Shown: in pieces, positions 1 to 29,948 of the stretch
Position numbering within the stretch: position 1 is the stretch's first letter
How the letters are laid out: every line of letters begins with the position of its first letter
NCBI GenBank assembly: GCA_963816715.1
Contig: CAWFMJ010000015.1
Coordinates: forward strand, 290,108 to 354,107
Origin: an uncultured delta proteobacterium
GTDB lineage: Bacteria > Desulfobacterota > Syntrophorhabdia > Syntrophorhabdales > WCHB1-27
Reading direction: 5' to 3'
DNA length: 64,000 nucleotides
Notes under the pieces: model-generated
The model's database searches: none
What the model was told of the DNA's origin: nothing
The model's input: only the letters and a program-made list of their open reading frames with translations
Made by a program: the position numbers and the translations under genes

Positions 1-3000
1 GCACAGTCCACGGCGGGCAGCGGCGGCCTCATCGCCGCCTCGGGCGCCGCTTCGAGCGTCGAAGACACGAGCACGACGCAAGCATACATCGAAAACGCGA
101 CGTCGGCTGCCAACAAATCGACCTTCGATACGGCCTCGCTCACGGTGTCGGCAAGCCATACGGCGCAGTTTGACAGCCAGGCGAATTCCACGGAGGCCTC
201 TTTGGTGGGCGGCAGCGGAGCCTCCGGCACGAACACCATCGACACGACCGTCGACGCTTTCATCGGCGACTACACGAACGTCGCGACGGACAACCTCAAC
301 GTCACGGCGACAAGCACCACCCTCAAGAATATGTCCATGCCCAACGCGTGGAGCACCTGGGACATCCAGGCCGGCTCCGGCGGCGCCATCGCGGGCAGCG
401 CGGCCCAGAGCATAACGAACATCAGCAATGACACCGAGGCCACCATCGGGGACTCCGTGACCATCGACGTGGTGGGGAGCCTCTCCGACCCCGGCGCCTT
501 TGTCGTGAGCGCTTACAACGACGTCGAGGCCTCCGATTGGGTCGATCTCGACGCAGGCGGAGCGATCGCCTATGCCGGCGCAACGAGCGAGATACTGGTC
601 GACAACAACAATCCCAACAATTTGCCGACCGCCCTGGCGAGCCTCGGCAACAACGACGTCATCTCCACGGTAGGAGACCTCGACCTGGAAGCGTACACGA
701 AGGGAATACTCGACGTGGAGCCGAAGGCGCATACCTACGGTCTGGCCGCCGCGGCATCGATCGACGCCGAAGCCCTCATGCACGAGAACGACGCGGTCAA
801 TGTCGGGACCGGGACCAATGTCCTGGCTATGGGCAACCTGAATCTCCTGGCAGGCGCGAACCACACCGGCACGGAGAACTACTTCAATATAACGTCCCAC
901 GGCGACGAATTGAACGCCTCGGCCATCCCCATCAACGAGCTGCAGTCGCACGGCGAGGTGGTCCAGAACAACACCGTTTACATCGGCGCGGGCAGCGATC
1001 TCCAGACCGCGCAGGACGCCAACCTCACCGCCGAGACGATGGGAACCGACGAAGTGACCGCGTACGGCGAGGGCAAGGACTGGATGAGCGATCTTGCCGC
1101 CGACATTAACAGCCTCGGCACGCCTATCCCTGCCACCATGCAGGGCGGCACGCAAACCGTCACCACCACCGGCACGGTGACGGTGAACGGCACGGTTGAA
1201 GTGGGCGTCGATGGGCAGAAAACACTCGTCATTAATCAAGACGGCACGATTGCCCAACAGACCGGCGGCATCACGTTTACGACAAGCACGGAGTCGGAAG
1301 CGAACGACCTGATGATGGAATATGAGTACTGGACTTCCATGGTGACCGTCTACGGCGCCGGTTCTACTGCCGGCCAGGCCTACCAGCAGCAGGCGGACTA
1401 CGTCGCCGCGGAGATGACGGCCCTCGGCCTCAGCGCCACAAACGGCTCGACCACCGCCTACCTCACGTCCTACGCCGTGCCTTATATCACGGTCGATGCC
1501 ATCGACGCTCAGGAAGGAACGATCAACGTCATCGGCACGTCCCTTGCGGTCAACGGGACCCTCGACGCCTCGGGCAACGTGTCGGTTGATATCGAGAACA
1601 ATAGCCCCGACTTTCTCCGGATCGAGGGAATCGACATATCCAGCAGCGCCGGCGGCCAAGTGCTTTTCAATTACAACGCCATCACGAGCCTTCAGGGCTT
1701 GACGAACGTCTCGGGGAGCGGCACGCTCAGCGTGGCGGGGAGCGCCGGCGCGACGACGCCCACCATTACGATCAAGAGCAACTTCGGCGCTTCCGACGAG
1801 ATCGGCAATTACGCCCATTGCCAGACACCGAATGTGGAACTCTCGGGCGACATCAGCAACATGCTCGGCTCGGTGACGATTTACTCGGCGGGAAGCGTCA
1901 TAGAGAATGCCAACACCGACGCAGGGACCATCTCCATCACCGCGGGCGGCAGCTACGTACAGAACTACAGCAATGCCCTGAGCAGCATCGGAGGAGGAGA
2001 CCCGGCAGCCCAGGCGGTGTGGACGCAGGTGCTCGAGGACGCCATAGCAGACTGGAATGGCAATTTCCTTTATGGCATGATCGGGGTGCTTTCGAGCTCG
2101 AATGACACCAACGCGCAGTTCCAGGCCGACCTCGCTGCCGCCCTCGCCGCCTCGGCGCCGACCTCGAGCAGCATCGTCGCGGGCGAGAATGTTTTCATCG
2201 CCGCGGAGTACCTCAACATCGATGGCACCGTGCAGAGCGGCCAGCCGCAGCAGACGGTGACGATCCTCAACAACGCGGCGACCCAAACCTACATCAGCAA
2301 CGCGAATAGTGTGTATGCGGCAGAACAGGCGGGCTCGACCTCATATGCCAACCGTCTGATAAATCAGGATGGCCTCACGACGAGCGACGGCATACACTTC
2401 AAGCTCGCGACGCAGTCGGGCGACACCATAACCGCTTACTACAACGCCCAGACGCAGCAGATCGACCTGGCGCCCGTGACCGTTCAGGGCGGCTACATGC
2501 AGCTCTACGGAGACATTGCCAGCACCGGCAACGGCCAGCTCAACGTCCTCGACGGCTACGGCACGGTGAGTATCACGAACGACACTTCCTATGCGCTGGT
2601 TACCAACACGATCGAGACGGGGCAGGGCGCGGCCGGGAAGCTCATCATCACGGATACGGCCTACACAGCCGACGTAAACGGCCAGGACCTGCCGCTCACC
2701 ACGGAGTATACCAGGGTGAACGGAGAAGTCACGACCGAAACCTACTACCTCTCTTCAACGGGCGCGAAGCTCGACGATACAACCGTTTCCTCGGGAAGCG
2801 TCGGGAGGACGGCGGTCTACACGCCGCTTTCCGGCCAGCGGTACTACTGGACCGAGGGCGAAGATTTCATGACCACCACGACCGACACGTACAGCGCCTC
2901 GGCGTGGCTCGGCATCAGCGCGTTCTACTCGCCGTCGAATATCGTCAGCTCCGATACCGTCGTGACGAAGGGCCTGCACCTTGAATCGGGCGCCTACATC

Positions 3001-6000
3001 GCGACTGACAGCAGCGATACGAGCGCGTACGACTTCAGCATGCAGCAATTCCAGACGAGCGCCCCCACTACGGTAGACAGTCCGGTGCAGGAAAGCTCGA
3101 CCTGGTACGGCAAGACGACCTATACCTCGACACAGACAACCTACGACGGCTATGAGGACATCTACACGAGCAGCATCAAGGCCGACAGCCCGATCAACAT
3201 CGATTTTATCGGGAGCGACAGCGGCAGCGTGACGATAAGCTCGCCCAACAGCAGCGTCATCGTCGACGGCGCCATCCAGAACGCAACGGGTACGACGAGC
3301 ATCAGCGCCGGCGGCCAGGTCGAGCAGGGCAGCGCGACCGCTTCCGTCGGCGGCGCCAACATCACCCTCGCAGCCGGAAGCGGCATCGGAGCGACCGGGG
3401 CGCTGGACGTCAATCTCACGAAATCTTCCGGCGTGCTCAACGCGACGAGCACGACGGGCGACATCGATATCGACGACCCCAACGGCAGCCTCACGATCGA
3501 CACAATCAGCACGTCCCAAACGGACGGCGACATCACGATCACGGCCGCGGAGAATATCTTCGCCTCGTCTACCTCTTCGCTGATAACCGGCGGCGCCATC
3601 ACCCTGACGGCGACCGACGGCGAGATCGGCAGCTTCGGCACGAACGGCACGTACGACGATCCGGCCTCCGACGCGCTCCCCATCGACATCGATACCGGGA
3701 CCGACGCAACGCACGACATGCTGACTGCTACGGCATTCGGCAACATCTACATCATCCAGCCGACGGGCAACCTGCTCGTCCAGGACATCACGACGAACGG
3801 GGACGTGCGGGTAGAGGTCCCTAACGGCAATATCGCCAACTCGAACACGGACGTCGTCGTCGACACAAGGACGTGGAACGAGCTGCTCAGCATGTACGAT
3901 CAGATGGAGGCCACGGGGTCGGCGGCTCAGACGAGCATCAACGATACGATCCTCGCGTACAACGCGGGGCAGACGCAGGATTACCTCACCTACTGGACCT
4001 ACCGGAACCAGCAGTCAAACGACTACGTGGGCGGCCTCACCGATGGCCAAACTTACTATGTCGTCCAGGTTGACAGCACGCACATCGGCCTTGCGACTAC
4101 CGCCGGAGGAACGCCCGTGAGCATTATGGCCTCCACCGACCCGGGCGACGGCGCCGCCGAGCAACGACTCTACACCGGCTCCGGGACGTACGTGACTTTT
4201 GACGACTCATCGTCGACCATCAACAATACGAACAGCACGATCGCCATGTCCGGCATTACAGGCGGAACCCTCACGGCGGGCGAGGAGGTCACCTTCGAGC
4301 GGTATGTGCCGTACAGCGACAGCCAGACGGTAACCCTTTCCGCTGCCCAGCAGACGGCCTACACCACGTACTATACACAGCAGGGAACGGCCCAGGGCCT
4401 CAGCGGCTCGGCCCTGACCAGCTACGTCAACAACGCAATCCAGACCCTGGAAAACCAGGAGACCCAGGAATACCACACGCTCAACCAGACCTGGGGGTCC
4501 GTGGGCGATTTCTACGACCCCACCTTCTCCTATAGTTCCGGGTATTCCGTAGCGAAGTTCGCAGGGTACTCCGTGGCGAACTTTGACTCCTCTTCCGTGA
4601 CGGGAAACGTCATTAATGTGGGCGCCAACGCCTTCACGACCGGCGAGGCCGTGACCTACGAAGAGAGCGGGGCCGCGGCCGGCGCAACGAACGGCAACCT
4701 CGTCGTCGGCAATACCTACTACGTGATCGCGGGCGTCGGCGGCAATGCGAACGACATCAGCCTTGCCGACTCCGCAGCCGATGCAACCGCAGGGAATGCA
4801 ATCACTCTGGGCACAATCACGGGAAGTGCGAATTACGTTTATGGGACCAGCCCTTCCGTGACGGGAAACGTCATTAATGTGGGCGCCAACGCCTTCACGA
4901 CCGGCGAGGCCGTGACCTACGAAGAGAGCGGGGCCGCGGCCGGCGCAACGAACGGCAACCTCGTCGTCGGCAATACCTACTACGTGATCGCGGGCGTCGG
5001 CGGCAATGCGAACGACATCAGCCTTGCCGACTCCGCAGCCGATGCAACCGCAGGGAATGCAATCACTCTGGGCACAATCACGGGAAGTGCGAATTACCTT
5101 TCGGGCGGCCCCAGCTCCGACGCCCTGCACAACGCGTTCGGCGCTTCCGCGGTAGCAGGCAACACGATCAACGTCGGCGCCAACGCTTACACGACCGGCG
5201 AGGAAGTCGTCTATGAGAACGGCCAAGCGGCGGGCGCAACGAACGGGAACCTTGTCGTCGGCCAGACGTACTACGTGATCAAGGATTCCACCGACACCAT
5301 CAGCCTTGCCGACTCCGCCACGGACGCGAGCGAAGGCAACGCGCTTGCCATAGGCTCGATTACGGGCAGCGGCAACTTCTTCTCCGACGGCGCCGTTCTC
5401 GCGCAACGGGCGGCGTGGAGCCAGGCGCAGTTACAGGAGTCCTTCAACGCGAATATCCTTGCGCCGAGCACCGCGACATCGACCCAATACGCCACGGAGA
5501 CGGACATCACGGCGCGCAATGTCTACCTGAAGGCGTCCAATGCGCCGAGTAATACATCCGCCGGCAACATCGGCGTGAGCGAAGGGACGCTCACGATTAA
5601 CCTGCCCCTTTCCTCGGACAATCTCAGCACGGCGCAGGAAGTTGCCCTGGCGGCGGCGGAGCCGGAAGACATCACGTTCTATACGGGCTCCAACGGCACA
5701 GGCTCGGTAATAAACCTCAACAGCCTCCCCAGCGGGGAGACTGTCGCCGAAGCCCTCGCCAAAGCCGGGAGCCTCACGGTGAACGAGATAAAGCCGGTGG
5801 ACGTCGTCGCCGCGGGAACGCTCATTTTCACAGGGACAGGCAACGTCAACGTTGGCTCGACCGGCAACATGAACCTGGAGAGCGTGACGGCGGGCAACGA
5901 GGCAAGGCTCACGGCGGGTGGAAACCTGGTGGACGCGAGGACAGACTCGAGCGCCGTCGTCGAGGCGGGCGGCAACGTGGTTCTCGAAGGTGGTAACGGC

Positions 6001-9000
6001 TACATCGGGACTGCCTCGAACCCCTTCATCATAGCGCTCTCCACCGGCTCTCTCACGGCGAGCGCGGCAGAGGACATCTACATCACGGAGACGAGCTACG
6101 AGGGAACGACCTATTCGATGAACGTCGCCCATGTTTTCAGCGATAACGACGTCTACCTGACAACACAGGGCTCGATCCTCGACTATTACGGCGTCAACGA
6201 TCAGCCCGAGTGGGAAATCGGCGCGCAGTCCGCAGACCTCCAGGCAGGAGGAGGCATCGGCGCGAGCAACAATTATGTGGGCATGGAGCTTACCGACGGG
6301 ACGATCACGGCGAATGCGAAGGGCAGCATTTATCTGAGCCAGTACTCGGGCGACATGGACGTCAAGCTGGTCGATTCAGCGACCGGGGACGTCGGCTTGT
6401 CGGCAGCGGGCAACCTCCTCGACGCCTCCGGAGGCGTAGCGGCGGCAGTGATAGGGAAGAATGTCACCCTCCAGGCAAACAGCGGGTCCGTCAATGTGGC
6501 GTCCAACGGGCTTGCCGTCGCTTTTGACATCCAGGCCTCCGGGAACCTCACTGCCTCGAGCTTCCTCGATATCTACGTTACCCAGATGAGCGGCAACCTT
6601 TCCCTCGGCACGGTGGCGACGACCCAGGGGACGGCCTATATCTCGGCGCCTACGGGAGAGATCCTGAACGGGCTCTCCAGCGGCGACAACATCACCTCCG
6701 GCGCGACCTACCTCTTTGCTTCCGGCAATATCGGCACGCAGGCAAACCCGATAACCTCGGCCACTCCGTCGAATGCAGCATCAGCCGAACTCCAGGCAAA
6801 TTCGACGACCGGCGGCGTCTATATCGTGAACAAGGGCGCCCTCGACATAACGGACGTTTCCGGCGGTGGCGATGCAATAGAAGCGGGCGGCTCGGTGGAC
6901 ATCACGACCCATTGCGTCATGACGTTGACCGGGCAGGTTACCGTCGGAGCAGACGGCCTTGGCAATCTCACCCTCACTGAAGCTGGCGGCACGGCGGGCG
7001 ATTTCATCCACGTCGAGCAAGGCACAGACCTAACTGTATCGGGCAACGTAACCTTTATAGCCGAACAGGACGTGCTTATCGACGCAGGCTCCACAATCAG
7101 CGCTGGTGGATCGGTGACGATCGAAGGCGACCAGGAGACCGCAGCATTAGTAAACGCCACAGCAGCCAACATACTGGTGGCCGGGACGATTACGGGAAGC
7201 TCGCTGACCATCCAGGGCGGCGCACATGACGATATCATTAGCCTGACCAATGTCCAGCCCGGCGTGCCCACGACCATCGAGACGGGCACGGGGAACGATA
7301 CGATCAACATAGGAAGCCTCGCGACGATGACCCTGAATACGGGCGATGTCCTCGGCACGATCCAAGCCCCCCTCGTCATCGACGGCCAGGGCGGAACGGA
7401 TACCCTCAACCTCGACGACTCGGGGGACACGGCGAACACATCGGGCGACCTCACGTACAATACCCTCACGGGCCTCGGCATGGCGGACGGCATTACGTAT
7501 TCCAACATCGCCGCCCTCAATATCTCCCTCGGCTCCGGCAACGATACGTTCACCATCCAGTCGACCGACTCCGGGACGACGAAGCTTTCCACCGGCGCCG
7601 GGACGAACACCGTCAACGTCCAAACAATCTCAGGCGCGACGACCATTGACGACGGAAGCGCGACAGACACGATCAATGTCGGCAACGTTTCCAGCCAGAC
7701 AGGCCAGATCGGCGCCCTCCTCACCGTCAAGGGCGACGTTTCCGACATCCTCAACGTGACCGACGCGGGCGACGCGACGGGCCGCACGGGAACCCTCACC
7801 GGTTCCACGATCACCGGCCTCGGCATGACGGGGAGCATAGCTTACGCCGGCGTCCAAACCTTGAACATCTCCCTCGGCTCTGGATCGGACACGTTCAATG
7901 TCCAGTCGACCGATTCGGCAACGACCAATCTCAATACCGGTTTAGGGGCAAATGAGGTCGACGTGCACGACGCGTCGAACACAACCAACCAGATCAACGG
8001 CCTCCTCACCGTGACGGGCAACCCCGGCTCCGACATCCTCAACGTGACCGACGCGGGCGACGCGACGGGCCGCACGGGAACCCTCACCGGTTCCACGATC
8101 ACCGGCCTCGGCATGACGGGGAGCATAGCTTACGCCGGCATCGAGACCTTGAACGTCTCCCTCGGCTCCGGCAACGACACGTTCACCGTCCAGTCGACCG
8201 ATGTGAACGTCACCAACCTCCATACCGGTGCAGGGAGCAATACGGTCAATGTCCAAACCATTTCCGGCGCGACCACCATCTATGACCAGAGCACGACAGA
8301 CACGATCAACGTCGGCAGCCTCTCTAACCAGACAGGCCAGATCGGCGCCCTCCTCACCGTCAAGGGCGATGCTTCCGACACCTTGAACGTGACCGACTCC
8401 GGCGATTCCGCGAACGGTGTCTCGGGCGACCTTACTTCTTCAACGATCACGGGCCTCGACATGGCCACGGGCATCGACTACTCGGGCGTTGCAACGCTCA
8501 ACATTCATCTCGGCACGGGCAACAACGCTTTCGCCATCGACTCCACCTCCGCTGCGACGAACAACCTTTACACGGGCGTCGGAACCGAGAGCAACACGGT
8601 CAACGTCCACGAGATCGACAATGCGACGAACATCTATGACGGAAGCAAGAGCGACACGATCTACGTGAGCGACACCTCCAACACGACAAGCCATATCGAG
8701 GCCCTGCTCACGGTCAATGGCGCGGGCGGCGCAAACAACGGCGACACCTTGAACGTAACCGACACGTCTGACGGCGGGAACATATGGGGCAACCTAACGT
8801 CTTCCGCGATCACGGGCAATTTCTTCGGAACCGGAGGGAGCGTCGACTACTCGGGCGTCGCAACCCTCAACATCTCCCTCGGCTCGGGCAACGATACGTT
8901 CACCATCCAATCGACCAATCAGAGCACGACGAGCAATCTCTCTGCAGGCGCAGGAAATAACACGATCTACGTCCAGACCATAGCAAGCACGACGTTGGTC

Positions 9001-12000
9001 CAGACGGGCAATGGGAACAACGCCATCGACGTTTACGACGGGTCGAACACGACGGACCAGGTGTCCGGTTCCCTCACGATTGCTGCCGGCACAGGCAACA
9101 ACACCCTCAACGTGACCGATACGGGCGATGCGACGGGCCGAAGCGGCAATCTCACCGCTTCCACCCTCACCGGCCTCGGCATGGCAGAGGGCATCACCTA
9201 CACCGGCATAACGACCCTGAACATCTCCCTGCCTTTGACGGCTCAGAACAACTTCACCATTTCCAATACCGATACGACGACCACGAACCTTACCGGCGGC
9301 AACGCGGGCGATACGATCACGATCTACCAGGTGAGCGGCCTCACGAACGTTCAGGACGGCTCGGGCGACGACACCATAACGAAACTGGGCTATGCCGACA
9401 GCGCCACGCTCAACATCGACGGCGGCTTGGGCAACAACACCGTCAACGTGAGCTATGCAGGCGGTTCGAGCAATGACCTCATCAATGTGACCGACGCCAA
9501 GGAAGCGCCGACGCCCATTACATTGAGCAGCGCCGGCTCGGGCTCCTCCCAGGAACTCACGCCTGTGGTCGCTAACCAGACTTTCAACGCTGCGTCCACC
9601 GCCAACGGCGGTTCCGTCAACATTGCAAACAGCACTATCGAGATCGCCAACGCGGACACACTGTACTACACCGGCGAGACGGTGCGCTACCTCAATGACG
9701 GGACGAACGCGAGCAGCGTGGGCGGCCTGAATAACGGGCAGGTGTACTATGTTATCGTGACGGGCCAGAATACCATCCAACTGGCCCTTACCCTGGAAAA
9801 CGCCCTGAAGGCGACCCCTGTCTCCATCGCGTTTACCGGCTACGGCACAGGGACAAACAGTCTGGTCGTCCCCTCCTCGACGCCGACGACCTTTAACGGC
9901 GCAACCGCCGTCAGCCTCGCGAACAACACGATCACCATCGATTCCCACGGCTTCCTCACGGGCGAGGAAGTCACGTACGAAGATGGCGGCGGGACGGCGA
10001 TCGGCGGACTCGTCAACGGGCAGACCTACTACGTGATCGTGGTCGATGCGAATACGATCCAACTATCGACGACGGCGCCTTCGGCCGGAACGACGCTCAA
10101 CATTTACGGTACGAACCAGACGGAGAACCTGCTTCTGAGGGCGACCTCCAACCCGACAAGCTCAGGCCCCAATGGCACGGGATTCGTCGCTGCCCTGAAC
10201 GGCGGAACCGACTACGAGATGGTCACGTATACCTCGTCGATCAGCAATCTCATCGTCAATACGGGAAACGGCAACGACACGGTGACGCTGGACGACAACC
10301 GGATAGAGACGCTGATCAACGCCGGCACGGGGACCGACACGTTCCAGATAGGCCAGATTTTCCAATCGGCCCGTAACACGAGCAGCAACGTGCTCATCGA
10401 CGCGTTTACGACGACCCTGACCACCAGGGGCTACCTGAGCAACGGCGTGAGCTACGACACGACTATCACCGGCGGCGTGGGGACCAACGCAGGGGCGGAT
10501 ACCTTCACGGTATACCGCAACCTCGCCACCCTCGACCTTGTCGGAGGCACGGGGAACGACACCTTCATTGTCCAGTCCTTCGTGACGGAGGCCTCTGTCC
10601 TGTCGCGCGTCAACACCGGGAGCGCGAGCAATAATATCCAATATGTGACGAACGCCGACCTCGAGATTGACGGCGGCGCAGGCATCAATACACTCGAGAT
10701 CATCGGCACCGAGTTCGACGACGACTTCGTCATCACGGACCAGGCGATTTACGGCGTCGGCAGGACGATTGATTTCCAGAACATTCAGAACCTGATCATT
10801 GACGGCGGCGCAGGCGACAACACGTTCTACATCCTGAGCACTCCCGCTTCGTGCAACGTCGAGCTCTGGGGCGGCCTCGGCAACTCGACCTTCATCATCG
10901 CCGGTTCCTCGGCGGTGCTGCCTGCCGGATTTAACGCCGTGGGCGCCAACGACGTCAGCGTCAACCTTGCAACACTGCAACAACAACCCACCGATAACCT
11001 GAGCTGCATCGAAGGAAACCTCACGATACAGGGCGGTCCGAGCCCGGGGAGCGTCGTGGGAACGAACGCTCCGACGATGCTGCCGGGAGAAACGAATATC
11101 CCATCCCAGGACGGCACGGTACAGGCTTTTTCGGGAACGGGCGTTGCGGGGGCGACGACGGACACGATGACGGTCGAGACGGCCGACCTCCAGACGAAGG
11201 CGAATACCCTGGGCTTTACCACTTTGAGCCAGTTCGCCGGCCAGACCATCGAGATCGTTTCAGGAAGCGGCGTCGGCCGTTTCTGGTTGATCACAGGGGT
11301 GACTCAGTCTGCTTCCGATCCGGCGCTGACGACCCTCACGTTGCAGGACCCGGCGGAGTTGTCGGCGCAATGGACGACGCTTCCCACGAGCGGCAGCGTA
11401 TACGCCATCAACGGTTTATCTCAATCGTACTTTGTGAACACTGCCAGTCTCGTGAACGTCATGTCCGTCTATGACGACCAGGCCTCCACGTCCACGGGGT
11501 CGCTCGTCGGGAAGGGCAGCCAGGGCATGGAACTGACCGGGCTCGACATGGGCGGGACCTTCGATTACAGCGACATGGATACGGTGCAGTTCTACCTGGG
11601 CACGAACGTGACCAACTTCACCGTGTCGGGCTCCCTCGAAACGGGCACTCCTGACAGTTCGGGCGGCTACGGCCAGACGCTGACGTCCATCACCACGGTG
11701 AGCGAAAGCGCAACGCCGGTGACCGATACCTTCAACATCGACCTCGACGACTCCATTGCCGGCCTCTTCGCCCTCAATATGGAAGGGGGAGCGGACAATT
11801 ACGTTTATGCGATGAATTCAACCCTGCCGCTCGTGATCTTCGGCGGCGAAGGAAGCAACACTATTTACGGAGGCCAGGGCGGGGACACGATTTTCGGCCA
11901 CGAGGGCCTCATTGACTACACGGACGATGCGGGCGACGTGATAACCCGTCTCGGCCTGGACTTCTCCGAGCAGACCAACAACACCTTGAACCGGGGTCAG

Positions 12001-16950: not shown

Positions 16951-19100
16951 AAAACACCACGGAACAAAAGAGCCTCTTCAGCGAGTCGTGGTACCGGGCG
17001 GCCGATCTGAGGCCCCGTTTGCGGAGCCATACCCAGTTCCATCACCACGTCTACCGGGGGACCGACTGGTACATCCTCCAGGACAACTCTACCGGCCGGT
17101 TCCATAGGTTCTCACGGGAAGCGTACGCCATCGTGGGCCTCATGGACGGAAAGGCCACCATGCAGGAGATCTGGGAAGCGGCCGGCGAACGACTGGGCGA
17201 CGACATGCCGACGCAGGGCGAGGTAATCAGCCTTCTCTCGTACCTTCATCAGAACGATATCCTGCAATCGGACAAGCCGCCGGACATCCGGGACCTTGCC
17301 AAGCGGCGCCGGAAGGAAAAAGCGAGCCGCTGGATTGCCATGGCCCGTTCGCCGGCCGCCATGAGTTTTCCCGTCTGGGACCCGAATTCCTTTTTGGAAA
17401 AAAGTCTTTTCATCGTGCGGCCCTTCATGAGTCGCGTCGGCGCCGTACTCGGCGCGCTGCTCCTCGGCGTTGCGCTCCTCCTCCTCGGGATGCACTGGCA
17501 GGAGCTGTCTCGGGACGTGACCGACCGGGTGATGAGCACGGAAAACCTCTTCCTTCTCGCGCTCATCTATCCCTTTTCGCGCCTTCTCCATGAGTTCGGC
17601 CATGCCTTCGCAGTGAAAAGGTTCGGCGGGGAGGTCCACGAGATGGGCATCATGCTCATCGTTTTCATGCCCCTGCCTTACGTGGACGCCTCCTGGTCGT
17701 CGGCTTTCCCGGAGAAGGGCAGGCGAATGTTCGTGGGAGCGGCGGGGATCATCGTCGATATCCTCGTGGCGTCGCTCGCCCTCATTGCCTGGACCCTCGC
17801 GGAGCCGGGAGCGGTGCGCGCCATCGCCTACAATATCATCTTCGTCGCGGGCCTCTCCACCCTGCTGCTCAATGGCAACCCCCTGCTTCGCTTCGATTCC
17901 TACTACATCCTCGCCGACTGGCTGGAGATTCCCAACATGGCGGACAGGGCCAACAAATACCTCGCCTATCTTGCCAAGCGCCGCCTGTTGCACATGTCGG
18001 ACGCCGTTTCCTCAGTCCAGGCGCCCGGCGAAAGCCCCTGGCTCTGCATTTACGCCCTTGCCTCCTTTGTCTACCGCATCCTCATCTCCGTCGGCATCTT
18101 TCTCTTCGTCGCCGGGAAGTTCTTCTTTATCGGCGTGATCCTGGCCCTGTGGGCCGCTTTCAGCATGATCGTCTGGCCCCTGGTCAAGGTTGTGCGTTAT
18201 GTGGCGGAACACATGCGCGAGCAGGCGCTACGGGCGGCCCTTGTCGCGGGGGCCGTCATTTGTCCGATCCTGGCCTTCATTGTCTGGTTTCCCCTTCCTT
18301 CCTCCACGGTGACGGAGGGCGTTGTATGGGCGCCCGAAGACTCGCAGGTCTTTGCCGGGACAGACGGGTTTGTGGTGAAGGTCCTCGCACGTCCCGGACA
18401 GCGCGTCTCGCGGGGCGACCCGCTGCTGTTCTGCGACGCCCCCGGTTTGCAGGCGGAAATGAAGGTGCTCAACGCGGCTATGGAAGAGGTGGAGGCGCGT
18501 CTCCGGGTCAGCCTCGTGACGGACCGCACGCAAACGGAGATATTGAAGGATGAGATGGGCAACGTCCGCGCCAAAATGGCGCGGGCCGAGGAGCGGATGT
18601 CGGAGTTGATCGTGCGAAGCCCCGGCTCGGGAACCTTTCTTCTGCCCGAGGCCGAAGATTGGCCCGGCAGGTTCGTCCATAAAGGCACACCGGTCGGTTA
18701 TGTGGTCGATTTTTCGAGGACCGTCGCCAGGGTTGTCGTCAGCCAGGCCGACATCGAGCACATAAGGCATAAGACCGTCAGGGTGGAGGCCCGTCTCGCG
18801 GAATCCTTGCCGACCATTTTGCCCGCCGCGGTCGAGCGGGAAGTGCCGGCCGCGTCGAAGGATCTGCCCAGCATGGCCCTCAGCGTTCAGGGGGGAGGGC
18901 GCGTCGCTCTCGACCCGAAGGAGACGCGACGCCCGCAGGCTTTTGAAAAGCTGTTTCACCTCGATATTGTTCTCCCGGAGGCAAAGGCGCGAGGGATCGG
19001 CGAGCGGGTCTTCGTCAGGTTCGTCCATACGCAGGAGCCCCTCCTTGCGCGATGGCGCAGGGCGGCCCGACGCGTTCTGCTCAGGCGGCTGAGCGTGTAG
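16893..19100 (+). CDS. Fusion of an M50 (site-2-protease family) polytopic zinc metalloprotease with a C-terminal HlyD-like periplasmic adaptor region.
   Basis: HExxH in a hydrophobic context ('FSRLLHEFGHAFAVKRFGGEVHEMGIMLIVFMPLPYVD') and multiple TM segments. The C-terminal half has HlyD-like beta-barrel/coiled-coil features ('GVVWAPEDSQVFAGTDGFVVKVLARPGQRVSRGDPLLFCDAPGLQAEMKVLNAAMEEVEARL...IVRSPGSGTF'). It overlaps the preceding gene by 58 nt, so the true start may be internal. Confidence 0.7.
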   Translation: MDAQTAQLVQALVLVVAALKNTTEQKSLFSESWYRAADLRPRLRSHTQFHHHVYRGTDWYILQDNSTGRFHRFSREAYAIVGLMDGKATMQEIWEAAGERLGDDMPTQGEVISLLSYLHQNDILQSDKPPDIRDLAKRRRKEKASRWIAMARSPAAMSFPVWDPNSFLEKSLFIVRPFMSRVGAVLGALLLGVALLLLGMHWQELSRDVTDRVMSTENLFLLALIYPFSRLLHEFGHAFAVKRFGGEVHEMGIMLIVFMPLPYVDASWSSAFPEKGRRMFVGAAGIIVDILVASLALIAWTLAEPGAVRAIAYNIIFVAGLSTLLLNGNPLLRFDSYYILADWLEIPNMADRANKYLAYLAKRRLLHMSDAVSSVQAPGESPWLCIYALASFVYRILISVGIFLFVAGKFFFIGVILALWAAFSMIVWPLVKVVRYVAEHMREQALRAALVAGAVICPILAFIVWFPLPSSTVTEGVVWAPEDSQVFAGTDGFVVKVLARPGQRVSRGDPLLFCDAPGLQAEMKVLNAAMEEVEARLRVSLVTDRTQTEILKDEMGNVRAKMARAEERMSELIVRSPGSGTFLLPEAEDWPGRFVHKGTPVGYVVDFSRTVARVVVSQADIEHIRHKTVRVEARLAESLPTILPAAVEREVPAASKDLPSMALSVQGGGRVALDPKETRRPQAFEKLFHLDIVLPEAKARGIGERVFVRFVHTQEPLLARWRRAARRVLLRRLSV

Positions 19101-19280
19101 CGTCGTGAACCATGAGAAAAGAGCTGTTTCATCCCCCCGCGACCCGGAGTCTCCGGCCCGAAAAGAAAGATCCCACGCTTTCCACGGCGGAGCGTGCAAG
19201 CCGGGCCCTCGTCGCCCCGCTCGCGCGTTCCCTGCGCTCCCTGAACCGGGTCGGGCGGATCGCTCGGGTCGCCGCAAAAC

Positions 19281-21101
19281 ATGCCTAGCGCGGCATCCCA
19301 AATGAGCGATTCGGCCCTGAAGGAGGAGGCGGGGCGGCTGGGGCTCGAGGCCAGGAGAGGAGGCTTTTCCGAAGAGATTGTCGGACGCCTCTTCGCCATT
19401 GTCCGCGAAGTATCAGGAAGAACCCTGGGCCTCCGTCATTTCGATACGCAGCTTATGGGAGGTTTTCTCCTCCTCAAGGGGATGATCGCCGAGATGGAGA
19501 CGGGAGAGGGGAAGACGCTCACCGCCACCCTCGCCGCGAGCGCGGCGGCGCTTGCCGGGCTGCCCGTTCACGTGATTTGCGTGAACGACTACCTCACCGC
19601 GCGCGACGCGGAGGAGATGGGGCGTGTCTATAAAGCGCTCGGTTTGACCGTCGGCTGCGTGGTCCACGAGAAGACGCTTCGGGAGCGGCAGGCCGCATAC
19701 GGTTGCCAAATTACGTACTGCACCAATAAGGAGATCGTCTTCGACTACCTGCGCGACAGGCTGATCCTCGGAGATGCGACGGACAACCTTCGGCTGCAGG
19801 CGGAATACCTTCACTCCCGCGACGTGCGGGACGACCGCCTCCTTCTGCGCGGCCTTCATTTCGGCATTTGCGACGAGGCCGACAGCATCCTTGTCGACGA
19901 GTCACGCACGCCCCTCATCATTTCCGGCGCGGGAGACGGTAGGGAGGAAGAGGCGTTCCTCCGCCAGGCCTTGTCTTTGGCGAGATCGCTGAAGGAAGAT
20001 AAGGACTACTCCATCGACAGGGACCGGAACAGGATCGACCTGACGGACAAAGGACTCAATCGGGTTAAAACGGCCTCGGGCCAACTCGGCCCTCTCTGGG
20101 CGGTCGCTATCAGGCGCGACGAGACCATAAGGAAGGCGCTGGCCGCCCTCTACCTCTTTCAGGCTGACATCCATTACCTTGTCAAGGACGGCAAGGTACA
20201 GATCATCGACGAATACACGGGCCGGCTCATGCCGGATCGGTCCTGGGAGCGCGGCATGCATCAGCTCATCGAGATAAAGGAAGGGTGCGAGCCGACCCGT
20301 CAGGTGGAATCGATTGCCCGCATCACCTACCAGCGTTTCTTTCGGAGATATCTGCACCTTTGCGGCATGACGGGGACCGCCTGGGAGGTAAGAAAAGAGC
20401 TCTGGTCGGTGTACGGTCTTGCCGTTGCCCGGATGCCCACCGAAAAGCCCCTCAGGCGCCTTTATTTGCCCGGTTTTGTCGCGCCCACCATGGACCAAAA
20501 GCAGCGGGCCATTCTGGAGCGGGTGGAGGAGCTTTTTCACCTGGGCCGCCCCGTCCTTATCGGGACGCGTTCGGTAGCAGCTTCGGAAGAACTGAGCGCG
20601 CGCTTCACCGCGGCCGGTCTTGGCCATCGCGTCCTCAACGCAAAGAATGACGGCGAAGAGGCGGCAATCGTGGCCGAGGCCGGCAGGAGCGAGGCCATCA
20701 CTATCGCAACGAACATGGCGGGACGGGGCACGGATATCAAACTGGGACCGGGGGTTGCCGATCTCGGCGGGCTGCACGTGATCCTCTCGGAGCGGCACGA
20801 CGCCGGAAGGATCGACCGCCAGCTCGCGGGCCGTTGCGGCCGCCAGGGGGATCCGGGCAGTTTTGAGGCCATTTTGTCCATGGAGGATGCCTTGCTCGAA
20901 GGCGGCAGGGCAGGGATGTTCGGGTGGGCGGCGAAGCACGTACCCCGGTTTGCCGCCGGTCTCTGGACACTGATTTCGAAAATCGCTATAGTACATGCGC
21001 AACGAAGGATGGAGCGCGTCCATGCCCGCGCGAGACGGGAGCTTTTGAAGCAGGACGAGCAGATGGGCACGCTTCTTTCATTCTCCGGTTCCGGAGAATA
21101 G
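19281..21101 (+). CDS. SecA-like ATPase of 606 aa. The SecA motor core (NBD1, preprotein-binding region, NBD2) is present, but the C-terminal helical-wing, scaffold and zinc-binding tail of canonical ~900-aa SecA is absent.
   Basis: SecA signature strings are present: 'GMIAEMETGEGKTLTATL', 'ITYCTNKEIVFDYLRD', 'ICDEADSILVDESRTPLIISG', 'GMTGTA', 'ATNMAGRGTDIKLG', 'GGLHVILSERHDAGRIDRQLAGRCGRQGDPGSFEAILSMEDALL'. The protein ends ~40 aa after the last motif. Confidence 0.8.
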   Translation: MPSAASQMSDSALKEEAGRLGLEARRGGFSEEIVGRLFAIVREVSGRTLGLRHFDTQLMGGFLLLKGMIAEMETGEGKTLTATLAASAAALAGLPVHVICVNDYLTARDAEEMGRVYKALGLTVGCVVHEKTLRERQAAYGCQITYCTNKEIVFDYLRDRLILGDATDNLRLQAEYLHSRDVRDDRLLLRGLHFGICDEADSILVDESRTPLIISGAGDGREEEAFLRQALSLARSLKEDKDYSIDRDRNRIDLTDKGLNRVKTASGQLGPLWAVAIRRDETIRKALAALYLFQADIHYLVKDGKVQIIDEYTGRLMPDRSWERGMHQLIEIKEGCEPTRQVESIARITYQRFFRRYLHLCGMTGTAWEVRKELWSVYGLAVARMPTEKPLRRLYLPGFVAPTMDQKQRAILERVEELFHLGRPVLIGTRSVAASEELSARFTAAGLGHRVLNAKNDGEEAAIVAEAGRSEAITIATNMAGRGTDIKLGPGVADLGGLHVILSERHDAGRIDRQLAGRCGRQGDPGSFEAILSMEDALLEGGRAGMFGWAAKHVPRFAAGLWTLISKIAIVHAQRRMERVHARARRELLKQDEQMGTLLSFSGSGE

Positions 21102-21114
21102 GGAGGAAGGGTTT

Positions 21115-21858
21115 ATGAGCAGGAGGATCGGTACCGCGGCGCTCCTCGCAGCCGCGCTTTTCGTGGTGTTCTGCATCGGGGCGGGCAGGGCGGCCTGCCA
21201 GGAGTACCTGGAGGGGATGATAGAACCTTACCTGGTGGTGAACATCAGCAGCCAGACGCCGGGCATCATCGACCAGGTGCTGGTCGAGCGGGGGGACGTC
21301 GTGAAAAAAGGGCAGATCGTGGCGAACCTCCGCGCGGCCGTCGAGAAAGCCGACGTAGAGCTTGCGGAAGCGCAGGTGGCGTTCAGCAAGCGCAAACTCG
21401 GCCGCAACGAACAACTCTTCGAGCAGCAACATATCTCGGCAAATGAGAAGGATGAGATCGAGACGGACATGAAGAAGGGCGAAGCCTTGCTCGAAGAGGC
21501 AAAGGCAAAGCTCGAGATACGGAATATCCGCAGCACCGTGGACGGCGTCGTGGTGAAGCGGGAGCTGGCGGCGGGCGAGTACGTGGGCGAAAAGCCCATC
21601 GTGACCATAGCGCAGATTAACCCCCTCAACGTGGAAGTGGTCGCGCCGGTCAGGCGCTATGGCTCGATCACGAGGGGGATGCTGGCCGAAGTGAGGCCCG
21701 AAGCCCCGGTAGGCGGCTCGTACACGGGCAAGGTGGTCATCGTGGACAGGGTGGTCGACGCGGCAAGCGGCACCTTCGGCATCAGGGTAGAGTTGCCGAA
21801 CCCGAGCATGACCCTGCCGGCGGGGCTGAAGTGCCGGGTGAGGTTCTACCGAAAATAG
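21115..21858 (+). CDS. Short HlyD/RND-efflux-type periplasmic adaptor (membrane fusion)-like protein with an N-terminal signal/anchor sequence.
   Basis: Strong RBS 'GGGAGGAAGGG'. The N-terminus is hydrophobic ('IGTAALLAAALFVVFCIGAG'). Adaptor motifs include 'PYLVVNISSQTPGIIDQVLVERGDVVKKGQIVANL', a coiled coil, and 'IRSTVDGVVVKRELAAGEYVGEKPIVTIAQINPLNVEV'. Confidence 0.7.
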   Translation: MSRRIGTAALLAAALFVVFCIGAGRAACQEYLEGMIEPYLVVNISSQTPGIIDQVLVERGDVVKKGQIVANLRAAVEKADVELAEAQVAFSKRKLGRNEQLFEQQHISANEKDEIETDMKKGEALLEEAKAKLEIRNIRSTVDGVVVKRELAAGEYVGEKPIVTIAQINPLNVEVVAPVRRYGSITRGMLAEVRPEAPVGGSYTGKVVIVDRVVDAASGTFGIRVELPNPSMTLPAGLKCRVRFYRK

Positions 21859-21883
21859 TGCCTGTATAGTGGGTACGAGGCGT

Positions 21884-21917
21884 GCGGCCGGGTTAGGCGC
21901 GAAATTAACCCGGCCGC
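21884..21917 (+). terminator. Perfect 12-bp stem-loop (GCGGCCGGGTTA / TAACCCGGCCGC, 10-nt loop) just after the last operon gene. It is terminator-like but has no U-tract.
   Basis: Inverted repeat read directly: 'gcggccgggttaggcgcgaaattaacccggccgc'. Confidence 0.45.
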
Positions 21918-22232
21918 GAAACCACGGCTGCTTACTTGACCTGCCAGTGATTGCACCTGATCAGACCCTGGCCTGAGAGGCTTATCATTTCAGGACCAGA
22001 GAATCTTCAACGGCTCGTCGAAAAGTGAAGGGCGGTTCATGGCTGACTCCAGAGAGCGTATTGATTGTAAGAACTGAATTCGATAGTCAACAAAATGACA
22101 ATGTCCCCTTGGCCTGCCGCTCCTTGTAAGGCTTCGACGGAAAGCCAGAGGAGCAAATCGTGTCAAATGGGGCGTATAGTAAGAGGATGTGCCCTTGAAC
22201 CGCCTTCAACAGAATAAATCGTTTACATCGCG

Positions 22233-23615
22233 TTGGATTGGGCGTATATAGTAAATATGCCTTTAACGAGTGATACCATTGTTATAGGCTTCACCGGTTC
22301 TATCGGAAGCGGATGTACTTTCATTGCATCCAAAATAATGGACGAATACCGCTATGACTATTTTTCCCTGTCAAATATTCTTAAAGACAAGGCGCGAGCG
22401 GAAGGGAAAAGTGATTTTTCCGTACCTGCCCTCCAAGAGTATGGTGACTCTCTTCGAGCGCAATTTGGATCCGGTTTCCTCGTTGATCAGCTGATTAACA
22501 GTGTAATAGGGGAGCGGAAACTATCTGAGGTCATCCTCGTTGACAGCATCAGAAACGATGTTGAGGTACAGAGTCTAAAGCTGCTGCCACTTTTCTATCT
22601 TTTCTCTGTCCATGCTGACGAAGACGTCCGATGCGCAAGAACAATTAAGCAAAAGAGATTCGAGACTCCTGAGGATTTCCGCACTGCTGATGAGCGCGAT
22701 CAAGCCGAGGAATTCACCTTCGGTCAACAAGTGAAGAAGTGTAACGATCTTGCCGATGTCATAATTGACAACAACAGAACTTTTACCTCTACCGCACCTG
22801 GCAGAATAAGAGATTTCATACGGGGCATTCACCATCGTTATATCGCTTTGATTGTAGCGCGAAAAACCCATGCCTCCAGTCCTGAACATATACCATCAGA
22901 AGACGAGACCTTCATGACTATGGCCTACGCTGAGAGCCAGCGTTCGCACTGTTTAAAGAGAAAAGTCGGCGCGGTGGTAACGTCAAAATACGCAACTGCA
23001 CTCGGGGACGCTAATGCTATAAAGGACACCGTCATGGTAGTCTCTTCAGGGCACAATGAAGTGCCAGTTGGCACAACGCCTTGTGTTTTCGATGAGAAGC
23101 TTGAAAAATGCTATCGAGACTTCCTGCAGGAGGAACAGGCCGAGAAGTATAAGCATTGTCCTTTCTGTGGGACAGCCATCGCATTACCCGCGATCACCTG
23201 TAGAAATTGCGGCTATGAGACAAGCCGCTACGTAAAGACGTGCCCAAAGTGTAGGTCAGAACTCGACATCAAATATAGATGCCCAAACGAGAATTGCAGG
23301 AAAGACGTGTTCAAGGAATACTTAAGGGGGGGAGGCAAACTCCTTGATATGTGCAAGGCTTTGCATGCCGAAGAGAACGCACTCCTTGGTCTTGTACGAG
23401 TGCCAGGCATGGACGGCACTGATCTGACCCTTTACACGACTACATACCCTTGCAACCTTTGCGCGAACAAGATCGTAACTGCTGGGATTAAAACTATTGT
23501 CTATGCGGACCCCTATACAATGAAAGAAGCAGAATTGGTTCTGGCGGCTGGCAAAGTCGGCACCCGTAAGTTCCAAGGAATAAAGAGCGTTGCCTTTTTC
23601 AAGCTTTATTCTTGA
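22233..23615 (+). CDS. Fusion of an N-terminal nucleotide-kinase-like (CoaE/dNMP-kinase-like) P-loop domain with a C-terminal CMP/dCMP-type zinc cytidine deaminase. It resembles antiphage dCTP deaminase (DCD) defence proteins and has an inserted Cys4-type zinc ribbon.
   Basis: The N-terminus 'IVIGFTGSIGSGCTFIASKI' is a kinase-like P-loop, but Cys replaces the Walker-A Lys. The deaminase motifs are 'HAEENALLGL' and 'TYPCNLCANKIVTAGIKTIVYA' (H[AC]E...PCxxC). The insert is 'CPFCG...CRNCG...CPKCR...CPNENC'. The gene sits in an AT-richer island. Confidence 0.65.
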   Translation: MDWAYIVNMPLTSDTIVIGFTGSIGSGCTFIASKIMDEYRYDYFSLSNILKDKARAEGKSDFSVPALQEYGDSLRAQFGSGFLVDQLINSVIGERKLSEVILVDSIRNDVEVQSLKLLPLFYLFSVHADEDVRCARTIKQKRFETPEDFRTADERDQAEEFTFGQQVKKCNDLADVIIDNNRTFTSTAPGRIRDFIRGIHHRYIALIVARKTHASSPEHIPSEDETFMTMAYAESQRSHCLKRKVGAVVTSKYATALGDANAIKDTVMVVSSGHNEVPVGTTPCVFDEKLEKCYRDFLQEEQAEKYKHCPFCGTAIALPAITCRNCGYETSRYVKTCPKCRSELDIKYRCPNENCRKDVFKEYLRGGGKLLDMCKALHAEENALLGLVRVPGMDGTDLTLYTTTYPCNLCANKIVTAGIKTIVYADPYTMKEAELVLAAGKVGTRKFQGIKSVAFFKLYS

Positions 23616-24057
23616 AATACCGTTCCTGCCGTGCTACGTTTTCTTAAAACAGAAGGAGAGGAAGATGAAAAGAGAAGCCAAGCCAGGCGTATCAGGCAGC
23701 CTTTTTGCACAACAATCTTCGAGTGACCTTCCGTCTGAGAGAAAGAGATTGCGTCAAGAGGTTCAAGCCTACCAAACATACTCCAGAGTGTGGAGTTGCG
23801 AGTTACTGTGATCAAGCGATCCACCATTATGGACCGCAAAGAAGAGTGACATTGTCGATTATGCCTGTGGAGGAGAAGGGGAGAAGCTCTTGAAATGGCA
23901 TCCCGGTTATCTCAGGAGTTAATCAGTCCTCATTTCAACATTTCAAGAGCTTCTCCAAAGATCCCTGTCCGGAGAAGCAAATCTGTACTCTTTAGCGCCG
24001 ACGTGGCGAGAGTGGTGCGCAGCACTTTTCTCGCTTATCGTGCTTCTGGCTTTATCC

Positions 24058-26170: not shown

Positions 26171-26330
26171 GCTAACTCGTGTTTTTCTTCATAGACACCT
26201 CCTTTGCCCCGCCTTGACAAAGGAAGTAAGCCCTGATACTTTTAAAATGTCGGGGCAGTTCCTCTGCGGGCTGGACCCGGTTTCGTCGGGGCTGAGGAAA
26301 CTTTCGAAGGGGACCTCAGCCCCGTTTTTC

Positions 26331-26360
26331 ATTTTAGATGATGTTTAGGATAAAAGTCAA
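26331..26360 (-). promoter_or_regulatory. Sigma70-like promoter on the minus strand (TTGACT-18 nt-TAAAAT) for the Ubl/E2-like and JAB-E1 operon. A perfect 10-bp stem-loop (26292-26330) lies in the leader.
   Basis: The minus strand reads 'cccTTGACTtttatcctaaacatcatcTAAAATg'. The leader hairpin is GGGGCTGAGG...CCTCAGCCCC. Confidence 0.45.
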
Positions 26361-26397
26361 GGGAAACTTATTTATTATAGTAAAGTGAAAATAAATC

Positions 26398-26426
26398 TTG
26401 ACATTACCTGCACTACTTGTTAGATT
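26398..26426 (+). promoter_or_regulatory. Divergent sigma70-like promoter on the plus strand (TTGACA-17 nt-TAGATT). It precedes a ~280-nt non-coding stretch that ends in a terminator-like hairpin.
   Basis: 'TTGACAttacctgcactacttgtTAGATT' read directly. Confidence 0.45.
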
Positions 26427-26725: not shown

Positions 26726-26732
26726 GTGCACT

Positions 26733-29944: not shown

Positions 29945-29948
29945 CTTA

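Follow-up and report, generated by a model that had tools for sequence, protein, structure and literature searches.

In textbook accounts, SecA drives the general secretion pathway, and SecYEG is generally regarded as its sole partner channel. In canonical SecA, the intramolecular regulator of ATPase 1 (IRA1) and the two-helix finger regulate ATPase activity and reach into SecY, and the tail binds SecB. Here we describe a short SecA-like gene in a 64,000-nucleotide stretch of DNA from an uncultured delta proteobacterium (contig CAWFMJ010000015.1, positions 290,108 to 354,107), which is referred to below, at its full length, as the window. A preliminary description made from the sequence alone had placed at 19281-21101 a SecA paralogue without the C-terminal third, whose setting among HlyD-like adaptors suggested a repurposed motor. 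The closest precedent is the study of Kamneva, Poudel and Ward (PLoS One 2015, PMC4452313), who described secondary SecA_DEAD domain proteins and their conserved locus, exemplified by META1p2402-2399 of Methylobacterium extorquens AM1. These authors proposed that SecA_DEAD supplies the ATPase of a machine like the type I secretion system (T1SS), in place of an ATP-binding cassette (ABC) ATPase, and that an M50 protein, for which only weak Peptidase_M50 similarity was reported, is the membrane pore. In addition, West-Roberts et al. (bioRxiv 2023, 10.1101/2023.11.21.568195) found SecA_DEAD and preprotein-binding domains, with no scaffold or wing, inside giant proteins of Omnitrophota and Actinobacteria, and proposed that the embedded motor helps to export giant proteins.

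The window gene is another member of the family published in 2015. Its protein has the same domains, namely SecA_DEAD, the preprotein cross-linking domain (PPXD) and the second nucleotide-binding domain (NBD2), with SecA_SW absent or reduced to a fragment. The gene stands in the same cassette order (GAF-HlyD, Peptidase_M50-HlyD, SecA_DEAD, HlyD/biotin-lipoyl; window 15100-21858), and the family shows the same scattered phylogenetic spread and the same proposed T1SS-like ATPase role; nothing essential is different. We conclude that the short SecA is a genuine, naturally short form of SecA, presumably a paralogue of a housekeeping SecA encoded elsewhere in the genome, and that it belongs to this published family. 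From its sequence and its neighbours, it is reasonably likely to be the motor of a type-I-like exporter encoded by a conserved cassette, with the giant RTX-like protein encoded upstream as the likely cargo. The giant RTX-like upstream proteins, the DUF3467 companion and the radical-SAM/methyltransferase module described below go beyond the main text of PMC4452313, in which a term search for RTX, HemolysinCabind, DUF3467 and 'radical' gave zero matches. Also documented here, and not looked up in PMC4452313, are a domain resembling the recognition element (RRE) of ribosomally synthesized and post-translationally modified peptides (RiPPs), the fixed 80-aa tail, and conserved N- and C-terminal motifs.

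The short SecA and its conserved end

The gene is represented in the window by two overlapping reading frames:

19281..21101, plus strand: short SecA body, with NBD1, PPXD and NBD2 plus roughly half the scaffold helix, based on translation, Pfam, NCBIfam and structure alignment
19112..19288, plus strand: 58-codon start of the short SecA gene, specifying its conserved N-terminal extension (HPPATRSLRPEKKD...), based on translation, the common frame in relatives and a hidden Markov model (HMM) match

The open reading frame (ORF) at 19281..21101 on the plus strand translates into 606 aa, along which the motifs GEGKTL, FDYLRD, DEADSILVDESRTPLIISG, GMTGTA, NMAGRGTD and RHDAGRIDRQLAGRCGRQGDPG follow in order, exactly as the preliminary description had listed them. 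Pfam assigns SecA_DEAD (E 6.7e-97), SecA_PP_bind (2e-27) and P-loop_SecA (4.3e-48) to this ORF and finds neither the scaffold/wing domain (SecA_SW) nor the C-terminal domain. NCBIfam models of SecA and SecA2 match it at E 1e-115 to 1e-172, and these matches end at model positions ~490-605 of ~790. The cutoffs for canonical SecA are not reached (563-573 bits vs 800-814 for TIGR00963 and NF009538), and these two models are covered at positions ~7-491 and ~31-605 only. Scores for SecA2 likewise stay under their cutoffs: 474 vs 930 bits for TIGR03714, 453 vs 725 for TIGR04221, 538 vs 1085 for TIGR04397, and 387 vs 1100 for NF012136.

Alignment to solved structures follows the SecA motor up to about B. 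subtilis residue 602. Residues 7-594 of the query correspond to residues 35-602 of B. subtilis SecA, and thus the short SecA ends near B. subtilis residue 614 of 841. Between GDPG and the stop there are 80 aa, twice the distance of ~40 aa that had been estimated at first. This tail aligns to the linker between NBD2 and the scaffold and to the first part of the long scaffold helix. In an AlphaFold2 model of a relative, P0003 (79% identical; pLDDT 79, pTM 0.73), the C-terminal end is a single long helix (615-651). The tail alignment and this terminal helix together indicate that about half of the scaffold helix is retained and that the wing, the two-helix finger and the zinc-binding tail are absent. 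The original statement that the scaffold/wing and the zinc-finger tail are missing is therefore right for the wing and the tail, and has to be narrowed for the scaffold. The P0003 model matches B. subtilis SecA (1tf5; Foldseek E 1.7e-48, TM-score 0.73) and also superposes on 5eul and 3din. One difference from B. subtilis SecA lies within NBD1, where a 19-aa insertion (GDATDNLRLQAEYLHSRDV...) occupies residues 164-182 of the 606-aa ORF (window ~19770-19826). In P0003 numbering it spans 222-242, with pLDDT <50, and it contains family-conserved residues.

The missing SecA domains are not supplied by the adjacent ORF 21115..21858, which Pfam and NCBIfam identify as an HlyD/RND adaptor. A scan of all window ORFs with the short-SecA HMM found no second SecA-like ORF in the 64 kb, and the 884-aa ORF at 60352-63006, considered as a full-length secA, proved to be a molybdopterin oxidoreductase. 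Members of the published family occur as a second copy beside a full-length housekeeping SecA, which in this genome would presumably be encoded outside the window.

The position of the stop is a property of the family. We took motor domains from 122 loci with complete SecA-like ORFs and counted the tail residues that separate the G[RK]xGRxG[DE]xG motif from the stop codon. The lengths are bimodal, with 62 loci from many phyla at 64-91 aa (mode 80) and 59 canonical SecAs at 207 aa or more; a single intermediate case has 165 aa. In a neighbour-joining tree of the 122 motor-domain sequences (a distance tree, without bootstrap or other support values), all 60 non-short sequences (the 59 and the 165-aa case) fall into one clade that has no short member. 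Short and canonical proteins are thus parted cleanly, and the short SecA clade stands apart from canonical SecA here as it did in the 2015 family study. Across 71 homologues, Walker A, DEAD, TGT, NMAGRGTD and RIDRQLxGRxxRxGDxG are invariant, and the N-terminal P..RPE (P..RPEK) and C-terminal SFSG..E motifs are nearly so. In a profile scan of genome contigs with the patterns EMETGEGK and NMAGRGTD, about a dozen of 80 loci belonged to the family, the rest being dominated by canonical SecA.

At the 5' end, the true gene most likely extends over 19112..21101 and encodes 662 aa once a single extra base is left out. Nearly every one of the best 120 homologues is of full length, most having 662-668 aa, and the full-length homologues carry a conserved N-terminal extension of ~58 aa (M..HPPATRSLRPEKKD...). 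In the window, this extension lies in a different frame from the body and stops at TAG 19286-19288; the small ORF 19112..19288 that encodes it matches the short-SecA HMM at E 1.8e-7. Extension and body share one frame in the closest relatives (L085, L087 and L089), whose database entries of 599-602 aa reflect start-codon choices only. Moreover, the 90%-identity cluster of the window protein includes a 662-aa member, P0241, encoded on contig L090. Over window 11229-25697, this independent assembly (run ERR11523660) aligns without a mismatch and differs by 2 single-base gaps only. Relative to it, the window has an additional C at ~19284 and an additional, apparently intergenic G at 23737. L090, without the C, reads through to the intact P0241.

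Because the C is absent from the otherwise identical L090, the 606-aa start is most likely an assembly indel, and the two extra bases together suggest indel-type consensus errors in the window assembly. A strain polymorphism at ~19284, rather than an assembly indel, is possible. A programmed +1 frameshift at GCC-TAG was considered and ruled out, since the C is simply absent in the otherwise identical assembly and all relatives are in frame. For this window, the gene is thus a normal family member whose apparent length of 606 aa is most likely an assembly error.

These data also bear on the suspicion that the gene is a 3'-truncated or decaying secA pseudogene or an assembly artefact, which we regard as very improbable and poorly supported. 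In its favour, the window copy is frameshifted near the 5' end, the neighbouring giant gene is split, and a mobile island abuts the cassette. However, 62 loci share the stop position to within a few residues, no variation is seen in the ATPase motifs, almost all of the top 120 homologues reach full length, and the single extra C is missing from an otherwise identical assembly that encodes 662 aa. The fixed tail, the invariant ATPase motifs and the intact 662-aa copy in the same strain therefore argue that the gene is neither decayed nor truncated at its 3' end.

The four-gene cassette and its partner proteins

Four genes are tightly packed here, overlapping or with gaps of 12-14 nt between them, and the third encodes the short SecA. 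The other three encode adaptor-domain proteins:

15100..16950, plus strand: GAF-transmembrane (TM)-HlyD adaptor, 616 aa (Pfam GAF_2 1.8e-12, HlyD_3 5.2e-16, HlyD_D23 1.5e-13)
16938..19100, plus strand: fusion of an RRE (PqqD-like) domain, an M50 intramembrane metalloprotease and HlyD, 720 aa from the GTG at 16938 (NCBIfam, Pfam, motifs)
21115..21858, plus strand: small periplasmic HlyD/RND-type adaptor, 247 aa (TIGR01730 RND_mfp at 134 bits, above the cutoff of 94.9; Pfam HlyD_D23 5.7e-19)

The GAF-TM-HlyD protein is predicted to have a cytoplasmic N-terminal part of ~345 aa with the GAF domain, one TM helix (350-368) and a periplasmic membrane-fusion domain. In the small HlyD adaptor, residues 5-23 at the N-terminus are hydrophobic, as in a signal or an anchor. 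The M50-HlyD fusion is a candidate for the core of the machine in the inner membrane. Over the N-terminal 150 aa, all five orthologues compared match a single Pfam family, PqqD (E 4.5e-5 to 0.019, with full-length model coverage), which has the RRE fold. Residues 157-451 contain about five hydrophobic helices. The HExxH and NxxPxxxxD zinc-binding motifs lie within TM segments, which identifies a protease of the site-2 protease (S2P)/M50 type, and both motifs are intact: H218/E219/H222 and N312/P315/D320 are invariant in seven orthologues of 42-78% identity. Among specific models, that for a daptide-type HExxH intramembrane protease matches at E 7.6e-45, below its cutoff; the Pfam Peptidase_M50 match is weak (21.7 vs a cutoff of 27.2), as is that to HlyD_3. 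The C-terminal part of the fusion matches solved structures of membrane-fusion proteins (MFPs), namely the MacA, EmrA and MexA adaptors.

Gene linkage was counted in 80 metagenome loci that had been retrieved via the M50-HlyD protein, not via SecA, with the loci that offered enough room as denominators. The short SecA directly follows M50-HlyD in 53 of 54 loci, with a stop-to-stop length of 499-764 aa (median 671). The small HlyD gene follows the short SecA in 41/46 loci, and the GAF-HlyD gene lies upstream of M50-HlyD in 50/54. The cassette is conserved in Motiliproteus (L001), in Achromobacter piechaudii NBRC 102461 (L005), in other Gamma- and Betaproteobacteria and Planctomycetota (L004, L007, L008, L012), and in L081-L090, including a Geobacter sp. 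(L083) and a metagenome-assembled genome of Thermodesulfobacteriota (L084), as well as in many metagenome contigs. By Pfam and NCBIfam, no ABC domain occurs in the cassette genes of the window or of these listed relatives. The M50-HlyD family comprises 4,179 representatives of 50%-identity clusters at E <=1e-30; such a partner family, with ~4,200 representative clusters across Proteobacteria, Desulfobacterota, Acidobacteria and Planctomycetes, points to a widespread system. Given the fixed tail, the invariant motifs and the 53/54 linkage, the idea of a SecA paralogue that has lost its C-terminal domains and been repurposed among HlyD-like adaptors holds at the level of the family.

The same linkage is relevant to the view that the protein is an accessory SecA2-like ATPase, still using the housekeeping SecYEG for special substrates. 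In support of it, SecA2 models match strongly (for example TIGR04397, E 4.4e-161), the SecA2 of M. tuberculosis (4uaq) is also shortened and is matched by the structural model, and the secondary SecA_DEAD clade was placed next to actinobacterial SecA2 in PMC4452313. However, every SecA2 model remains far under its cutoff, nothing is left of the two-helix finger or the C-terminal scaffold, and the near-obligate linkage is to M50-HlyD, with no secY2 or asp genes nearby. It is the two-helix finger and the C-terminal scaffold through which SecA contacts and inserts into SecY. We therefore consider a SecA2-like helper quite unlikely and poorly supported.

Two sequence features near the borders of the cassette were also recorded. 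A sigma-70-like site, TTGACG-18-TACAAT (10/12 matches; window 14518-14547), is situated in the gap that separates the 463-aa RTX ORF from the DUF3467 gene (both described below) and may be an internal promoter of the export cassette. A terminator scan of the cassette did no better than chance. A perfect 12-bp inverted repeat, GCGGCCGGGTTA ... TAACCCGGCCGC, with a 10-nt loop and no T-run (window 21884-21917) lies 26 nt past the last cassette stop; it was read from the sequence, is unlisted by the terminator scan, and may form a transcript-end hairpin.

Candidate cargo, neighbouring genes and the proposed exporter

Three further genes on the same strand precede the cassette:

1..13128, plus strand: 3' part (at least 4,375 codons) of the gene for a giant RTX-like repeat protein, which runs off the 5' end of the window, frame 1 being open from the first base onwards
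13125..14516, plus strand: 463-aa RTX protein (Pfam HemolysinCabind, E 1.1e-18)
14647..15012, plus strand: DUF3467 protein of 121 aa, a conserved companion

The final 1000 aa of the giant ORF contain HemolysinCabind repeats (E 6.9e-29), and the ORF has homologues in L085 and L087, where giant ORFs likewise precede the cassette. What appears in the window as a separate 463-aa ORF is, in relatives, the C-terminal ~470 aa of a single giant ORF: it aligns to residues 1267-1739 (of the last 1745) of the L087 giant and to the L085 C-terminus. The split, an ATGA overlap at 13125-13128 in a gene that encodes one protein in L085 and L087, is real in the strain, because it is identical in the independent assembly L090. 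A frameshift mutation, a pair of coupled genes or recoding may account for it. In relatives, the same position is occupied by giant ORFs of 5,619, 10,236, 15,071 and 17,800 aa. An ORF of at least 800 aa lies upstream in 18 of the 28 metagenome loci with at least 3 kb of upstream sequence; most of these ORFs are open-ended, and the statistic counts stop-to-stop ORFs in contigs of limited length. In L081 (ENA contig_56145), the giant gene is spread over consecutive ORFs of 1844+, 642, 790, 254 and 75 aa, and the GAF-HlyD ORF has only 351 aa. These broken genes look like indel errors or decay and call for caution with length statistics from such assemblies.

At the C-terminus of the 463-aa ORF, an A/G-rich hydrophobic stretch is followed by the basic motif REGFKRLKEEQRRRRFLPW, which is common to L083-L087, L091, L100 and L106. 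A hydrophobic A/G-rich stretch, often ending in GW, and then a basic motif were likewise observed at the giant C-termini of L083-L087, L091, L095, L100 and L106 (corresponding to window 14300-14516). The motif of the closer clade reads ...R[DE]GF[KR]xL[KE]EE.R.RRF..W, and more distant giant proteins end in (I/L)DW-type motifs. This hydrophobic-plus-basic C-terminus is possibly a signal for secretion, recognition, targeting or cleavage.

The short SecA combines the pair of RecA-like motor domains of SecA with the preprotein cross-linking (clamp) domain and one half of the scaffold helix, and we propose that it acts as a soluble ATPase. It naturally lacks the wing, the two-helix finger/IRA1 region and the SecB/zinc-binding tail, and has gained a conserved N-terminal extension of ~30-60 aa and the conserved C-terminal SFSG..E end. 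Its gene would be transcribed together with those of GAF-TM-HlyD, the RRE-M50 protease-HlyD fusion and the small HlyD adaptor, and the four proteins may build a type-I-like trans-envelope exporter in which the short SecA, in place of an ABC ATPase, grips and threads the unfolded polypeptide. Having lost the parts that engage SecY, the motor must then dock elsewhere, and the RRE-M50-HlyD and GAF-HlyD proteins, with their large cytoplasmic domains, are the obvious candidates. The polytopic M50-HlyD would provide passage through the inner membrane; its intact protease site and RRE-like domain imply recognition and cleavage of a signal, the cytoplasmic RRE-like domain presumably recognising it and the metalloprotease site cleaving it. 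The three HlyD domains imply a periplasmic conduit, which would lead to an outer-membrane factor encoded elsewhere. The likely cargo would be the giant RTX-like protein encoded just upstream, with its conserved hydrophobic-plus-basic C-terminus, and DUF3467 may serve as an accessory factor. We infer ATPase activity, a physical complex, the direction of transport, the cargo and the cleavage from the genes and their arrangement.

The same C-termini allow another reading, in which the ensemble is an ATP-driven device for intramembrane proteolysis. The motor would pull the hydrophobic, basic C-terminal tail of the giant into the M50 site and so control its release from, or anchoring to, the inner membrane, export itself taking another route. 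The invariance of the catalytic HExxH and NxxPxxxxD motifs is compatible with this, as are the resemblance of the giant C-termini (hydrophobic, then basic) to sorting signals cleaved by dedicated membrane proteases and the lack in the short SecA of the two-helix finger that pushes chains into SecY. Nevertheless, three conserved HlyD-type adaptor domains are hard to explain without a trans-periplasmic conduit, and the surroundings of the giant gene show no other exporter of the ABC T1SS kind. We judge such a release device possible, with a probability that is small.

The DUF3467 gene is present in 27/43 metagenome loci. Its product has a disordered and variable N-terminal part of ~30 aa and a highly conserved beta4-alpha core, with many invariant residues up to the very end and no variable core region. 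The DUF3467 family has 5,006 matches at E <=1e-3; a fold search with a low-confidence model gave no fold match and no solved homologue, and literature searches returned nothing relevant on DUF3467 or on a truncated SecA together with HlyD.

Downstream of the cassette, the window differs from its relatives. In L081 and L083-L087, a divergent module on the opposite strand, ~0.5-7 kb downstream of the small HlyD gene, encodes a Methyltransf_2 O-methyltransferase, a 290-aa protein without a Pfam match, one to three radical SAM proteins, and proteins of 370-690 aa with an N-terminal DUF3467 domain. This module suggests post-translational modification linked to the export system. In the window, the position of this methyltransferase/radical SAM/DUF3467-fusion module is taken by a low-GC (47-55%) island directly after the cassette (21900-33100), with defence-like and insertion sequence (IS) genes:

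22233-23615: anti-phage dCTP-deaminase-like gene (NF041025, E 1.9e-58, below cutoff)
24058-25482, minus strand: ThiF/E1-like gene
25469-26170, minus strand: weak E2-like gene
27053-27610: M78/IrrE peptidase
28010-29617, minus strand: IS4-type DDE transposase
30990-33041, minus strand: SPFH protein

The module of the relatives lends some credit to a RiPP-style maturation and export system, in which RRE-M50 would cleave the leader of a small substrate, the radical SAM and methyltransferase proteins would modify it, and the SecA-like ATPase and the HlyD proteins would export it. Consistent with this are the PqqD/RRE-like domain in 5/5 orthologues, the daptide biosynthesis intramembrane metalloprotease as the best specific protease model (E 7.6e-45), the Methyltransf_2, radical SAM and DUF3467-fusion genes conserved on the opposite strand in L081-L087, and the one or two small DUF3467 genes directly upstream. 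On the other hand, DUF3467 looks like a folded conserved domain rather than a precursor with a variable core and is also fused to larger proteins, the modification genes are absent beside the cassette in the window, L001 and L005, and giant RTX ORFs are the commonest upstream neighbour. A motor with a preprotein clamp also seems oversized for short peptides. Small-peptide export is thus possible and, in our judgement, unlikely, if somewhat less so than the release device.

Several points weigh against the type-I-like exporter as well. No ORF of the outer-membrane factor type (OEP-domain/TolC-family) was found among the scanned window ORFs; the outer-membrane factor of a T1SS is commonly encoded elsewhere. 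A role of DUF3467 as a SecB-like chaperone was considered and dropped, as neither a SecB fold nor sequence similarity was supported. The link to the cargo is not universal, because about one third of the loci with enough upstream sequence have no large ORF, and the distant loci L001 and L005 have neither DUF3467 nor the RRF..W motif. In the window itself, the giant gene is interrupted by the split at 13125, and the mobile island stands in place of the relatives' radical-SAM/methyltransferase module, so the system may not be fully functional in this strain. The capacity of an S2P-type fold to form a protein-conducting channel is in question. Finally, our literature searches found no experimental follow-up on any family member, and in the AM1 exponential-phase expression data re-analysed in PMC4452313 the genes for SecA, M50 and HlyD showed no expression or very little.

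Beyond the type-I-like exporter as such, a wider proposal is put forward tentatively, at somewhat less than even confidence. The cassette would represent a distinct, very widespread and unnamed trans-envelope secretion machine, in which a SecA-derived motor docked on an RRE-S2P-MFP fusion exports RTX-like surface proteins of 5,000-18,000 aa via an MFP conduit, with the S2P removing the C-terminal hydrophobic/basic signal. Such a machine would be a hybrid of Sec and T1SS without an ABC transporter or SecYEG. The link to the adjacent giant RTX-like proteins offers a concrete and testable candidate cargo and bears on how proteins of 5,000-18,000 residues are exported. The system can now be tied both to this candidate cargo and to an RRE-S2P-MFP partner.

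Comparison with known secretion systems

The family suggests that a SecA motor has been co-opted into a type-I-like tripartite system, replacing the ABC transporter. Compared with the canonical SecA of E. coli, B. subtilis and T. maritima, the short SecA has ~40% identity over NBD1, PPXD and NBD2 and shares all motor motifs. It differs by the loss of the helical wing, the two-helix finger/IRA1, the C-terminal linker and the zinc finger, by the 19-aa NBD1 insertion and the distinct N-terminal extension, and by being encoded with MFPs and not with Sec genes.

The laboratory fragment SecA-N68 of E. coli has a deregulated high ATPase activity and is not known to support translocation through SecYEG. 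This engineered protein (PDB 5k9t) has nearly the same boundaries as the short SecA, with the DEAD motor and the PPXD, and the P0003 model superposes on it with a target-normalised TM-score of 0.69. In contrast to N68, the short SecA is natural and conserved, retains ~40 more residues of the scaffold helix, and has terminal motifs of its own.

With the T1SS (HlyB-HlyD-TolC) and the peptidase-containing ABC exporters, the cassette shares HlyD-family adaptors; the adjacent RTX-repeat protein with its C-terminal signal-like region, as the candidate cargo, may be a further parallel. As in the peptidase-containing exporters, a protease is built into the inner-membrane component, in a manner analogous to C39. 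Unlike a T1SS, the cassette has no ABC transporter; its ATPase is SecA-like and soluble, its membrane component is of the S2P/M50 type with an RRE-like domain, three adaptor-domain proteins take the place of one, and the cluster here contains no outer-membrane factor gene.

The accessory SecA2 proteins of Gram-positive bacteria and mycobacteria are second, shortened SecAs dedicated to special substrates, as the short SecA may be too, and the P0003 model matches two of their structures (4uaq and 6sxh). In published structures, SecA2 proteins retain the scaffold along with the two-helix finger, and they work through SecYEG or SecY2, whereas the short SecA does not meet the cutoffs of the SecA2 models and has an entirely different gene context. 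The giant proteins of West-Roberts et al. resemble the present system in linking a SecA motor devoid of scaffold and wing to proteins of giant size. There the motor is fused into the giant, beside TM segments, whereas here it is a stand-alone protein of 662 aa encoded with MFPs and an M50 protease.

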